From contig JANNXA010000055.1 in the NCBI GenBank assembly GCA_031409275.1, forward strand, positions 466,024 through 530,023: a stretch of DNA of 64,000 bases, read 5' to 3'. The notes under the pieces are model-generated. The model saw only the letters and a program-made list of their open reading frames with translations, had not been told where the DNA came from and did no database searches. Numbering within the stretch: position 1 is the stretch's first letter; each line of letters opens with the position of its first letter. The DNA is from Planctomycetota bacterium (GTDB lineage Bacteria > Planctomycetota > B15-G4 > SIAN01). This document shows, piece after piece, positions 28,217 through 32,279 of the stretch. The position numbers and the translations under genes are program-made.

Positions 28217-30099
28217 GCGGCAGCGCCACCTCGACCTCTGCTGCGACTGCAGCCGCAACGTCTCGCTCCGACGGCTGCGTGCGCGAGCTGCTTGACCGCG
28301 CGCGCGCAACGCCATCCGCCGGCGATTTCGTGCGAGCGGCGCTGCCCTGCCTCGCGGCGCGCTTCGCAAGCCCGTGCGTGCAGATCGAGCTGCATGGCTC
28401 GGCGAGCAGCCAACGAGAACGCTTCATCGCCGACGGCGCCGACCCGACGTTCTGGAGCGAACCGGTCGAACGCGCGCTCCTCGACGCGCTCGCCGACGGA
28501 CGCGCCAACGTGCAGCTCTATCGAAACGAGGACGGCGTGATCGGCCTCGCGCGCCTCGCCGTGCCGCTGCTCGACCGCAGCGGGCGCAGTATCGGCGCAC
28601 TCGCACTGATGGCACGCTGCGCGAGCGCGCCGGAAGCGCAGGCGCTATCCGGAGAACTCCAGGCGCTCGCCGCGTTGATCGCTGGGGCGACCACCGCAAC
28701 GACCGCGACGACGGCGGTGGCCGCGGCCGGGACGCCAGGCGATGCCACGCTCACGGCGCGCAAGGCGGCCCCGTTCGGCTCGGCGCGCGAGCTCTGCTAC
28801 ACGATCGCCAACCAGCTGCGAAACAAGAGCGGATGCGAGCGCGTCAGCGTCGCTCGCGTGAACGGAGCTCACGTCGAGTTGATCTGTTTGTCGGGCCAGG
28901 CCGAGGTCCAGCACGACAGTCCGCGCATCCACGCCCTGGTCGCCGCGCTCGGCGAGTGCCTCGACCACGGACCGCGCCTGGTCTGCCAGCACCCCGACAG
29001 TGCCGTCGAAGGCGCCATGCAAAGCGGCCCGTATCGTCTGCATCGCGCATGGCACGAGCAGTCCGGCGGCAGCTGCGTCGCAAGCCTGCGCCTCGCCGAT
29101 GATGGCGCGGCGCGCCTGCTGATCGGGCTGGAGCGCGGCAGCACGCAGCCGTTTCGCAGCGACGAGCTCGACGAGCTCGCGAAGCTCGTGCAGCCCTACG
29201 TCGCGGCGCTCGATCTGCTGGATCGGGCCCACGCCGGCGTGCTGAGCCATGTGCGCCGCGCCACCGTCGATTGGAGCCGCGATCTGGTTCGCCCGCGACA
29301 TTGGCGGCGCAAGGCGATCGTGGCGGCCGCCGCGGCGTTCATCGGTTGGCTCGCGCTGGGACGCATGGCCTACGAGATCCCGGTACCGGCCTCGTTGCGG
29401 GCCGCCTCGACGCGCCGCATTGCCGCACCGTTCGACGGCGTCCTGGCTGCGGTGGCGATCGTCCCGGGAACGAGGGTCCGTTCCGGCGATGTCCTCGCCC
29501 AGCTCGACACGCGCGAGATCGAACTCGAATCGCAGCGCCTCGCGCACGAGCTGGCAGTGGCTCGACTCGAAGAACGCAGAGCGTTCGCGGAGCGTCGCTT
29601 CAATGAGGCCGCGATCGCGCGCGCCCGCGGCGACGAGCTGACCGCGCAGGCAGAGCTGGGTGCGGAGCAGCTGTCGCGTGCCACGCTGCGTGCCCCGTTC
29701 GACGGCTGGCTGCTTCGCGGCGATCTGCGCGAGCAGGTCGGAGCACGCCTCGCGCGGGGTCAGGAGCTGTTCGAGGTGGCGCCTGGTCTGGAGCTCGAGT
29801 TCGAGCTCGAGTTGCCGGAAGCGCAGTTCGATGCGGCACTCGCCGGTGCGCCAGCCCGCTTCAGCCCGTTCGCCCGCCCCGAACAGGACGAGCGAGTCGA
29901 GGTCGCGAAGGTCGCGCCGGTCGCCGAGATGAGGAACGGCCGCAACGTCTTCGTGCTCACGGCCGCGTCGACCGGCGTTCCGTCCGGCCTGCGACCGGGC
30001 ATGGAGGGCATCGCCGTGGTCGAGGCGGGGCGACGGCCGGTCTGGTGGGTCTTCAGCCACCGCGCCGTCGACTGGCTGCGGCTGCACGTCTGGCCATGA
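28213..30099 (+). CDS. GAF-like domains fused to HlyD-family adaptor
   Basis: N-terminal GAF-like segments (LAVPLLDRSGRSIGALAL; CERVSVA..GECLD), TM, then IAAPFDG, LRAPFDG, LRPGMEG. Confidence 0.85.
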   Translation: MSGSATSTSAATAAATSRSDGCVRELLDRARATPSAGDFVRAALPCLAARFASPCVQIELHGSASSQRERFIADGADPTFWSEPVERALLDALADGRANVQLYRNEDGVIGLARLAVPLLDRSGRSIGALALMARCASAPEAQALSGELQALAALIAGATTATTATTAVAAAGTPGDATLTARKAAPFGSARELCYTIANQLRNKSGCERVSVARVNGAHVELICLSGQAEVQHDSPRIHALVAALGECLDHGPRLVCQHPDSAVEGAMQSGPYRLHRAWHEQSGGSCVASLRLADDGAARLLIGLERGSTQPFRSDELDELAKLVQPYVAALDLLDRAHAGVLSHVRRATVDWSRDLVRPRHWRRKAIVAAAAAFIGWLALGRMAYEIPVPASLRAASTRRIAAPFDGVLAAVAIVPGTRVRSGDVLAQLDTREIELESQRLAHELAVARLEERRAFAERRFNEAAIARARGDELTAQAELGAEQLSRATLRAPFDGWLLRGDLREQVGARLARGQELFEVAPGLELEFELELPEAQFDAALAGAPARFSPFARPEQDERVEVAKVAPVAEMRNGRNVFVLTAASTGVPSGLRPGMEGIAVVEAGRRPVWWVFSHRAVDWLRLHVWP

Positions 30100-32279
30100 G
30101 CGCGACGGCTTCACCGCCCCCGCAGACCACTCCCGCTGCCGCGGTCGCTCCTGCGGCGCCGTCGCTGGCTCAGCGGCTGCGCGAAGTCCAGGTCGGGGCG
30201 CGCCGCGATCTCGAAGTGACGCGCCACGTCTTCCGTGGCGAAGTGGCCTACGTGCTGCGCGACCCGCTGACTCTCGCTCACCATCGCGTCGGCCCGTCCG
30301 AGTACGCGATCATCGTGGCCCTCGACGAGACGCGCACGCTCGGGGCGATCTTCGAGGAGTTGGTCCAGCGCGGAGTGGTCGCCCACGACGAGGAGGAGAA
30401 CTACTACCGGCTGGTCTACTCGATGCATCGCCTCGGATTCCTGGCGCTTCCGTTGAACGACGAGAAGACGCTGTTTCGCCGAGCCGAGCAGCAGCGCGCG
30501 GCGCATGCGAAGCGCTTCCGGATGGCGTTCCTCTCGCTGCAGATCCCGCTCTGGAATCCCGATCGCTTCCTGCAGCGCACGCTCCCTTGGGTGCGACTCG
30601 CCTTCACCCCCATCGGCGTCGCGATCTGGCTGGCGACGGTCCTGCTCGGCGGGTACGTCGTCGCCGCGAACTTCCATGACTTCACGGCACCGATCGTCGA
30701 CCTGCTCGACGGCCGCGACCTGCCGATGCTGTGGGCGACCTTGATCGGACTGAAGCTGTTCCACGAGTTCGGCCACGCGTACGCCTGCAGAGGCTTCGGC
30801 GGGCTGGTGCCCAAGATGGGCATCAACCTGATGATGCTCACGCCGACGGCCTACGTCGACGCCACCAGCAGCTGGTCCTTCACCCTGCGCTGGCAGCGCA
30901 TCGTCGTCTGCCTGGCCGGGATGATCGTCGAGCTCTTCGTCGCCGCGCTGGCGGTCTTCGTCTGGGCGATGACCCCTCCGGGCGCGCTCCATTCGCTCGC
31001 GCATGGCATCGTGGTGATGGCGAGCGCGGTGACGCTGGCCTTCAACCTCAATCCATTCCTGCGCTACGACGGCTATCACGCGCTGTGCGACGTGCTCGAG
31101 CTCCCGAACCTGCGCGCCCACGCCGAGAGCTACACGCTCTCCCTGGTCCGACGCGTGCTGCTGGGCATGCCGATCGAACGGGCGCCGAAGCAGCGACGCC
31201 TGCGCTGGCTCTTCGTCTTCTTCGCGCTGGGCTCCGCCGGAAGCCAGCTCGCGCTGATGACGGGCGTCTGCCTCGCGATCGCCCACAAGTACTACGCGCT
31301 CGGCGTGCTGCTGGGCGTCGGTTACCTCGCCTCCCGCATCGTCAAACTGATCCGTAGCGCGATCGGTGGCCTCGTCCGCTCGGCCACGACGCCGGCGCTG
31401 CGCACGCGCGCGATCGCCATCGCCGTCGGAATGCTCGGGGTTGTGCCGATCGCGCTGCTAAGTCTGCCCATGCCGCCGCGCGTGCTGGTCACGGGCGTCA
31501 CCGGACGCCTCGCCGAAGCCACCGTCAGCGCGAGCAGCGACGGCTTCCTCGAAGCGATCGTCGCCCCTGCTGGCACCCACGTCGAAGCGGGAGCTCCGGT
31601 AGTGCGACTCGTCGATCCCGTCGCGGACGGCGCCGTCGCCACGGCGCAGGCGCGCCTGGTTCAGGCGCAGTTGCGAGAACGGGGACTTGCGCCGCTCGAT
31701 CCCGCGGCCGCTGCGGCTGCGCATGAACAGTCGCTGCAGGCGCAAGCCGCGCTCGACCACGCGTTGCGCCAGCAGCAGGATCGGCTCGTCGTCGCCCCCC
31801 GGACGGGGACGCTGCTTGCCGTACCGTCTTCCGGCGAGCGCGGCCGTTTCGTGCAACGCGGTGAGGCACTCGGACGGATCGTCGACGGCGAGCTGTGCGT
31901 GCGTGCCTTGTTGAGCCAGGAGGAGTGGGCCCGTTGCAGCCCATCGGTGGGCGATCGCGTCGAGTTCCGCTCGACGGCACAGGCGGGTCGCGTGCGGCAC
32001 GGCACCATCGAGCACATCGTCCCGATGGGGCTTCACGCCCTCGACCCCGACCTCGCGGCGCTCGCGGAGATCGCGGGTGGCGACATCGCCATCGATCCGC
32101 GCACGAACGAAGCGAGTCGCGCCCACTTCCAGCTCGTGGCGCGCCTCGATGAGGACGACGCGGCGGCGGCGCTCGGGGTCACGGGAGTGCTGCGCCTGTC
32201 AGCGCCAGCGACGCCGTTGCGGCACGAAGCGTGGCGGCGGCTCGTGCTCTTCGGTCAGCGCCTGCGCGAAGGCGGCTGA
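30096..32279 (+). CDS. PqqD/RRE-like domain + M50 site-2 metalloprotease + HlyD adaptor fusion
   Basis: YVLRDPLT..IIVALDETRTLGAI N-terminus, HEFGH, NLNPFLRYDGY, C-terminal lipoyl/coiled-coil MFP half. Confidence 0.88.
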   Translation: MSATASPPPQTTPAAAVAPAAPSLAQRLREVQVGARRDLEVTRHVFRGEVAYVLRDPLTLAHHRVGPSEYAIIVALDETRTLGAIFEELVQRGVVAHDEEENYYRLVYSMHRLGFLALPLNDEKTLFRRAEQQRAAHAKRFRMAFLSLQIPLWNPDRFLQRTLPWVRLAFTPIGVAIWLATVLLGGYVVAANFHDFTAPIVDLLDGRDLPMLWATLIGLKLFHEFGHAYACRGFGGLVPKMGINLMMLTPTAYVDATSSWSFTLRWQRIVVCLAGMIVELFVAALAVFVWAMTPPGALHSLAHGIVVMASAVTLAFNLNPFLRYDGYHALCDVLELPNLRAHAESYTLSLVRRVLLGMPIERAPKQRRLRWLFVFFALGSAGSQLALMTGVCLAIAHKYYALGVLLGVGYLASRIVKLIRSAIGGLVRSATTPALRTRAIAIAVGMLGVVPIALLSLPMPPRVLVTGVTGRLAEATVSASSDGFLEAIVAPAGTHVEAGAPVVRLVDPVADGAVATAQARLVQAQLRERGLAPLDPAAAAAAHEQSLQAQAALDHALRQQQDRLVVAPRTGTLLAVPSSGERGRFVQRGEALGRIVDGELCVRALLSQEEWARCSPSVGDRVEFRSTAQAGRVRHGTIEHIVPMGLHALDPDLAALAEIAGGDIAIDPRTNEASRAHFQLVARLDEDDAAAALGVTGVLRLSAPATPLRHEAWRRLVLFGQRLREGG

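Follow-up and report, generated by a model that had tools for sequence, protein, structure and literature searches.

Background

Type I systems of the HlyB-HlyD-TolC kind join adaptors of the membrane fusion protein (MFP) family to TolC and carry RTX cargo that has no Sec signal; the peptidase-containing type cuts an N-terminal leader during export. This work concerns a locus that resembles these machines in part. It lies in a stretch of 64,000 nucleotides, called the window here, from a Planctomycetota bacterium (assembly GCA_031409275.1, contig JANNXA010000055.1, positions 466,024 to 530,023). Its central gene encodes one protein made of a predicted RiPP recognition element (RRE; RiPP denotes a ribosomally synthesized, post-translationally modified peptide), an M50 protease and an MFP adaptor. 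Upstream of it lies an adhesin-like protein carrying an LExRxLL tag. We argue that the fusion and the tag belong together, and we weigh what the one may do to the other.

Several bodies of work describe pieces of this picture. Kamneva, Poudel and Ward reported in 2015, by computation only, a locus of M50-HlyD, GAF-HlyD, HlyD and SecA_DEAD genes, with or without TolC (PMC4452313). In the accessible part of that paper they suggest a role in export without an ATP-binding cassette (ABC) transporter, with the M50 protein as the pore. The words 'PqqD' and 'LEPR' are absent from its main text, and its accessible part names no cargo. Studholme et al. put the tag, known as LEPR-XLL (NF012209) or Planc_extracel (PF07595), forward as an export signal in 2004, as cited in the part of PMC8567305 available to us. 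Work on daptides, again as far as the available part of the source goes, describes the leader peptidase MpaP/DapP as an RRE-fused intramembrane site-2 protease said to remove the leader, and that leader has an acidic ELExMEAP motif (bioRxiv 10.1101/2023.03.08.531785). The epipeptide peptidase EpeP/YydH is an M50 protease which, in the accessible text, is thought to cleave and export its product (PMC10885120). A 2026 preprint, also available in part, reports intercellular transfer of two tagged giant Chlorobium proteins and places them in a SapC/TolC/HlyD route. We found no paper that joins the RRE, the M50-HlyD fusion and the tag, in a brittle search with supplements and subscription journals outside its scope.

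The fusion protein

The gene at 30096..32279, on the forward strand like every feature placed below, encodes a fusion of three parts, an RRE-fold domain, an M50 protease and an adaptor, with intact catalytic motifs. Translation most likely begins at the ATG at 30096, in an overlap with the stop of the upstream gene, and gives 727 residues; this 727-residue protein is present in the protein database. It is single copy in the genome, and the full model has a predicted local distance difference test (pLDDT) score of 91.6. A first-pass annotation of the window had described the gene as an RRE joined to an M50 protease. Both parts stand, and it had overlooked the third, an HlyD/MFP adaptor domain at residues 462-727 (31479..32276), which matches PF13437 at 35 bits and resembles AcrA, MexA and MacA by Foldseek with E values down to 1.6e-13.

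The Pfam match to Peptidase M50 is at its cut-off, at 27.2 bits, and the protein has HExxH in a membrane helix together with NPxxxxDG. Both motifs are in frame where they had been claimed: HEFGH at 30762..30776 (H223, E224, H227) and NPFLRYDG at 31050..31073, with D325, which we take from established knowledge of site-2 proteases to be the third zinc ligand. H223, E224, H227 and D325 are invariant across 119 aligned homologues (from the best 120 of 315 found), as are P320 and G326, and HExxH is present in 100 of 100 fusion open reading frames (ORFs). Many helices lie outside the catalytic core in the model. Compared with the daptide peptidase family NF041824, the RRE-M50 part scores 156.6 bits (E 1e-45), below the cut-off of 300; the match of the fusion to NF058609 (EpeP) is weak, at 35.6 bits for a cut-off of 225.

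The N-terminus (residues 26-121; 30171..30458) almost certainly has the RRE/PqqD fold, judging by its predicted structure. The AlphaFold2 model has strands at residues 40-46, 49-55 and 62-65 and helices at 67-75, 82-92 and 97-113, with block pLDDT values of 94-97 across residues 31-110. This is the pattern of three strands and three helices that had been read from the sequence, part of it in the in-frame stretch YVLRDPLT...IFEEL at 30249-30362. When the model was compared with 48,161 solved chains by VIA-align, the best matches were RREs: the lasso-peptide leader-binding protein B1 (6jx3_B; Z 10.1, root mean square deviation 2.9, 84 residues aligned), TigE (8vpo_A; Z 9.9, 2.2, 82) and TbiB1 (5v1u_A; Z 9.6, 3.0, 83), with the PqqD structure at Z 8.6. 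Foldseek also ranks TbiB1 and the lasso B1 protein first, with a probability of 1.00, yet with E values of merely 0.03-0.08. The three nearest clusters in the Atlas are PqqD-type (0.95-0.96), and 23-41% of their members carry PF05402. Sequence scans of the fusion with Pfam (PF05402, E 0.1) and NCBIfam do not call PqqD, and a family-profile sequence search of solved structures returned adaptor, biotinyl and weak M50 matches and no RRE. At a threshold of 12 bits the domain is retained by 98 of 100 fusion ORFs, and at 20 bits by 92. Its conservation (0.65) is close to that of the protease core (0.69); the adaptor stands at 0.47.

The tag and its cargo

The adhesin-like cargo is an RTX/PKD/Big_9 protein by Pfam, of 1399 residues, at 23515..27714, with a likely start at the ATG at 23563 after a GGAG. 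The tag, FEVESLENRVLLS, a predicted export leader motif matched by NF012209, sits at 23671..23709, exactly where the first-pass annotation had put it. Its NF012209 score is 16.1 bits when the protein is scanned, for a cut-off of 17, and 20 bits when the genome is searched, where it is the only one of the 4 matches listed that exceeds the cut-off. The residues E, L, E and R are invariant in 24 aligned tags, and conservation across phyla stops near LLS-A. The N-terminus is not hydrophobic, since the peak 19-residue hydropathy in the first 60 windows is 0.15, so the earlier claim that a hydrophobic Sec signal is lacking holds. With an NF012209 motif at the N-terminus (protein-scan score below cut-off), a large size and no Sec signal, the adhesin looks like other LEPR-XLL proteins.

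The first RTX block follows right after the tag, at 23779..24204 (PF00353), with its first repeat 32 residues past it. All 6 PF00353 matches of the genome fall in this frame, so the adhesin is the only RTX protein found there. The genome is 92.9% complete and belongs to the Planctomycetota by its relatives; it has one fusion, one tag above cut-off and one RTX protein, all of them in the window. The fusion and the tagged RTX protein thus pair one to one in this genome. At the other end of the cargo, 27595..27633 is a hydrophobic helix before a basic tail, recognized by position and pattern in relatives as a divergent copy of a motif discussed below. Between 24846 and 25600 (residues 445-725, approximately) the adhesin has near-identical tandem repeats, with a weak match to ALTTAQ_rpt (21.7 bits, cut-off 26.4).

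Coupling of tag and fusion

Co-occurrence and adjacency strongly support a link between the fusion and LExRxLL proteins. We searched 301 Planctomycetota genomes, using NF012209 for the tag; these genomes are kin, which inflates any P value. The fusion is in 94 of them and an NF012209 match in 60. Both occur together in 55, the fusion alone in 39, the tag alone in 5 and neither in 202. The five genomes with a tag match alone lack the fusion even by profile search, and all 7 of their tag matches are artefacts, off-frame or antisense to other genes. The genome-wide test of co-occurrence that the first-pass annotation proposed supports the link. Within one family (f8) the same 4 of 15 genomes hold fusion and tag. 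A profile made from 24 tags adds 12 of the 39 genomes with a fusion alone, against 0 of 39 fusion-negative controls, and PF07595 adds three further ones.

The coupling of tag and fusion extends across phyla. The named loci examined are the best 80 of 573 confirmed and come from many phyla. A tagged ORF lies within 10 kb in 18 of them, spread over four phyla. A further 25 genomes with a fusion, most of them outside the Planctomycetota, were picked from the named loci, 15 because a giant ORF ran past the locus edge; the tag profile matches 22 of the 25. The tag is at the start of 9 of these 15 giant edge ORFs (5,377-14,524 residues), as placed by coordinate arithmetic.

The choice of marker matters here. 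PF07595 was rejected as a co-occurrence marker for being too insensitive: it matches 30 of 301 genomes and misses this one. It gives 12 matches in fusion-negative genomes, one of which is an antisense match already seen with NF012209; of the 11 others, which we fetched, 10 are antisense, off-frame or at a frame end, and the one in genome G205 looks real. Both models give recurrent false matches antisense to housekeeping genes (NuoF-like and DXR-like by sequence) in GC-rich genomes. In the 301 genomes a DNA pattern for LExLExRxxP, the form printed in PMC8567305, is not clearly more frequent than its control. A tag-like pattern recurs as a near-identical 29-base match, six times in one genome (G279) and once in another (G180), possibly a repeated mobile element.

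The gene run and its relatives

The adhesin and the protease gene had both been seen before, and three other genes of the same run had been overlooked. The run consists of five genes on one strand. It begins with a stand-alone periplasmic adaptor of 276 residues with a hydrophobic N-terminus (22688..23518; TIGR01730, 105 bits, cut-off 94.9), whose stop overlaps the first start codon of the adhesin. After the adhesin come a PilZ protein (27764..28216; PF07238, 43 bits), a GAF-MFP protein of 628 residues (28213..30099), and then the fusion. Neighbouring genes overlap at three of the four junctions, and at the remaining one they stand 49 bases apart. The GAF-MFP protein has a GAF-like part, one membrane helix (368-386) and an HlyD_3 domain. 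Its own N-terminal 362 residues have no Pfam match, and the GAF label is given because all 3 close relatives that were scanned carry a GAF match, in 2 of them above cut-off. The locus holds three MFP domains in all.

RxxxR and DxSxxG are the c-di-GMP (cyclic di-GMP) receptor motifs of PilZ. The window's protein has them as RERGSVR and DLSRGG, so it is a predicted c-di-GMP sensor, and the genome has 8 GGDEF loci. Among 22 related PilZ ORFs, 17 carry the pair of motifs.

The window's locus is a SecA-less, PilZ-bearing variant of the locus described in 2015. Across 100 loci, a second, shortened SecA (SecA2) occurs in 61 and a PilZ gene in 22, never both. In the tree (FastTree, 101 rows, unrooted and drawn at the midpoint) a branch of support 100 sets off 26 rows that include the PilZ loci and the window, and the named ones among them are Planctomycetota or unassigned. 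In this clade, 12 genomes with a single fusion have one SecA locus apiece. The window's locus and its genome contain no second SecA that we could find, and the sole SecA is canonical; since there is no second SecA, the window's copy has no visible motor. A second clade without SecA2, and with no PilZ in view, consists of six loci (L072, L079, L086, L088, L089, L103) from Gammaproteobacteria and Sulfurovum, and tagged cargo is found in 4 of the 6, two with DUF4347. Tagged cargo persists in two separate clades that have no SecA2, so its constant partners are the fusion and the adaptors, not SecA. Three genomes (G054, G119, G019) hold both subtypes, a PilZ-clade copy and other fusion copies beside SecA2.

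The cargos of the PilZ clade have features of their own. RTX repeats begin at most 41 residues after the tag in 12 of 14 of them, and in 2 of 2 more; among other cargos an RTX match falls in the first 250 residues in 2 of 20, four of which end at the locus edge before 250 residues. In all 16 loci examined the cargo has a single hydrophobic LWGLLR-like helix, 14-37 residues before its basic C-terminus; this pattern was fitted to the sequences of the same 16 loci and has a single match outside them, in L071. The window's own helix scores below 6 bits on a profile of its 15 relatives. Some SecA-type cargos also finish in hydrophobic stretches. One subclade (L044, L047, L054, L129/L138, L130) has a variant, GGETVEPR-like tag, changes among the strand residues of its RRE, and PilZ motifs that are degenerate. 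These changes in tag, RRE and PilZ may be a case of co-variation, but they amount to a single event.

None of the nine TolC loci of the genome is on the window's contig. Of 19 TolCs from related loci, 16 are most similar to the copy on contig C22 (C22:17564-19183), and no pump was found among the eight neighbouring frames scanned around that copy. The genome has no canonical type I adaptor (its best TIGR01843 match is 59.5 bits, cut-off 208.65) and no canonical type I ABC subunit (best TIGR03375 match 331 bits, cut-off 693), and the fusion locus has no ABC transporter or C39 domain. An unlinked MFP gene with two ABC exporter genes (C1:21786-27033) falls far below all type I and bacteriocin cut-offs listed. 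A RiPP gene cluster was also considered and rejected: no short frame among the 557 in the window matches the tag, and no RiPP family was found among 26 scanned ORFs, which are part of the window's ORFs.

Four tRNA genes lie about 4-6 kb upstream of the module, at 16056-16469 and 18275-18356, and they are the only Rfam matches; no promoter-like site and no riboswitch were found. The module's GC content, 0.69, is that of its flanks and gives no hint of recent transfer, though the fusion is absent from two genomes of the same genus. The stretch is present in four DNA runs of one freshwater-sediment study, and no RNA run is listed.

How the parts may work together

We believe that the fusion probably forms the gate at the inner membrane of a pump-less export machine of the TolC type. 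The cytoplasmic RRE would bind the adhesin's N-terminal LExRxLL tag. The M50 domain would then cut the leader at the membrane near LLS-A, the point where conservation across phyla ends, and the chain would thread N-terminus first through the adaptors and TolC, the outer channel here presumably being the unlinked TolC on C22. Where SecA2 is present it would push the chain. In the window's clade export might be driven by calcium-dependent RTX folding behind the tag, by the proton gradient or by the housekeeping SecA, each of these a tentative suggestion, and a gating of export by PilZ through c-di-GMP is likewise conjectural. We put the probability of the whole chain of events, from binding of the tag by the RRE through cutting of the leader by M50 to N-terminus-first export through adaptors and TolC, at roughly 0.5. 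Its parts differ in strength. The module very probably handles tagged proteins, and the RRE is probably, though less surely, the reader of the tag. Whether the M50 domain removes the leader at or near LLS-A could go either way; the cut is proposed on account of the conserved active-site residues and the homology to the daptide leader peptidase.

The first-pass annotation had suggested folding the RRE together with the tag. Residues 20-365 (RRE-M50) were co-folded with zinc and a 32-residue tag peptide, in three runs with three controls. The score is 0.46 (runs 0.46, 0.50 and 0.45) against 0.00 in all three controls; the runs share at least 83% of their contacts, and the partner has a pLDDT of 55-56. 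The mark used for such scores is reached by 116 of 157 solved pairs and by 2 of 215 mismatched pairs. The model weakly suggests a contact between the tag and the RRE-M50 part; it gives no interface and leaves both domains as candidates for the binding. RRE-leader complexes have already been solved, so memory may contribute to the score.

Several points speak against our reading. Proteins of the same fold from outside RiPP pathways score as well as the RREs do (5doo Z 9.1, 8hkr Z 9.1, NovN Z 8.2), and with scores tied in this way the fold alone is no proof of leader binding. At co-fold scores of 0.60 or less the mark is reached by only 18 solved pairs and by both of the mismatched ones, a band that is more often wrong than right. 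Because the RRE and M50 domains were co-folded together and no interface is given, the co-fold does not single out the RRE. The GAF-MFP gene is as constant a neighbour of the fusion, so co-occurrence cannot single out the RRE either. No tag is found by any of the three models in 24 of the 94 fusion genomes, and fusion-negative G205 has a real-looking N-terminal tag (91% complete, 6% contamination, 210 contigs). The artefact check covered the fusion-negative matches only, and by the false rate seen there 2-3 of the 55 genomes with both may be spurious. The PilZ, RTX and C-helix traits belong to one clade and count as a single event, the C-helix shared by these cargos could itself be the export signal, and the locus holds no energy source. 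The 2026 preprint, in its accessible part, proposes that both tagged Chlorobium proteins are exported C-terminus first.

Four rival explanations were considered. Site-2 proteases cut hydrophobic helices like the one at the C-terminus of the clade's cargos. The module might export tagged proteins with another subunit, either SecA or the cytoplasmic GAF portion of the adaptor next door, reading the tag, and RRE-M50 acting on a different target, for instance that helix or a membrane regulator. The constancy of the GAF-MFP and MFP genes, the helix common to the cargos and the want of a co-fold interface all suit this idea, which we nevertheless consider unlikely: 98 of 100 fusions retain the RRE, an RRE-dependent leader peptidase is the closest family that has been characterised, and the 557 short frames of the window include no short tagged precursor. 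Less probable again is a scheme that follows the logic of LapA/LapG/LapD, in which the adhesin leaves C-terminus first on its C-helix, the RRE anchors the tag in the cytoplasm, and a cut by M50, gated by PilZ and c-di-GMP, frees it. A PilZ with intact motifs in the run, the 8 GGDEF loci and the conserved helix would all find a use here. Type I substrates carry RTX repeats before the C-terminus, the opposite of the window's cargo, where they follow the N-terminal tag; this, the window's weak helix and the 78 of 100 loci in which no PilZ is seen count against the scheme, with the Chlorobium preprint's export order, as far as the source was available, on its side.

In a third rival the RRE would bind the tag and the M50 helices would do no more than form the inner-membrane pore, with the tag staying on. 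This draws on the proposal of Kamneva et al. that the M50 protein is a pore (PMC4452313, accessible part) and on the many extra helices of the model. It is improbable in our opinion given three zinc ligands and a catalytic Glu that are invariant in 119 proteins, and an HExxH that no fusion among 100 has lost. Last, an unlinked ABC exporter might carry the adhesin as an ordinary type I substrate, the adhesin's place beside the module being incidental; this we regard as very improbable. The RTX repeats point that way, and so does the trio on C1, in a genome 92.9% complete; the trio's scores, far below every listed type I and bacteriocin cut-off, and the recurrence of the coupling across phyla point the other way.

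Comparison with known systems

If our reading of RRE, protease and adaptors is true, it names a receptor and an export route for a tag proposed as an export signal in 2004 and found on many of the largest proteins that bacteria make, and it supplies the 2015 locus with a cargo and a mechanism. RRE domains would then extend from peptide natural products to protein secretion, and a 13-residue tag that routes very large proteins would serve secretion engineering. The window is the simplest test case, with a single fusion, a single tagged cargo of 1,400 residues and no second SecA. It also raises the question of what powers export.

The earlier analogy to peptidase-containing transporters proves a loose one. 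The window shares MFP adaptors and RTX cargo without a Sec signal with type I and peptidase-containing ABC systems, and its TolC partner is unlinked. It differs from them in having a zinc intramembrane protease with an RRE, three adaptors and no ABC ATPase or C39 domain. Its gene set is that of the 2015 locus minus the second SecA. To judge by the accessible part of that paper, the two agree in bringing M50-HlyD, GAF-HlyD and HlyD genes together without an ABC transporter, and they differ in that the window's copy has PilZ and no second SecA_DEAD. DapP, as described in the part of the source available, likewise has an RRE fused before a site-2 protease, whereas our fusion adds a C-terminal adaptor and has a protein of 1,400 residues as its partner. 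EpeP/YydH, on the same footing, differs in its small peptide substrate and its lack of an adaptor. The LEPR-XLL/Planc_extracel proteins share with our adhesin the ExLExRxLL tag and are very large surface proteins without signal peptides; the available part of PMC8567305 names neither a receptor nor a machine, while we propose one for the window's locus.

The system is real and conserved. A stronger claim is that a RiPP-type reader, a site-2 protease and an adaptor make up an undescribed secretion system that takes off a short N-terminal tag and passes its cargo N-terminus first through TolC with no ABC transporter, free of a dedicated ATPase in the window's clade, controlled by c-di-GMP, with an RTX ratchet, a C-helix as stop or tether and cargo of up to 14,500 residues; this may be so, at somewhat worse than even odds. 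The system lies outside the daptide, type I and peptidase-ABC families, and we believe that it probably works like a hybrid of them.

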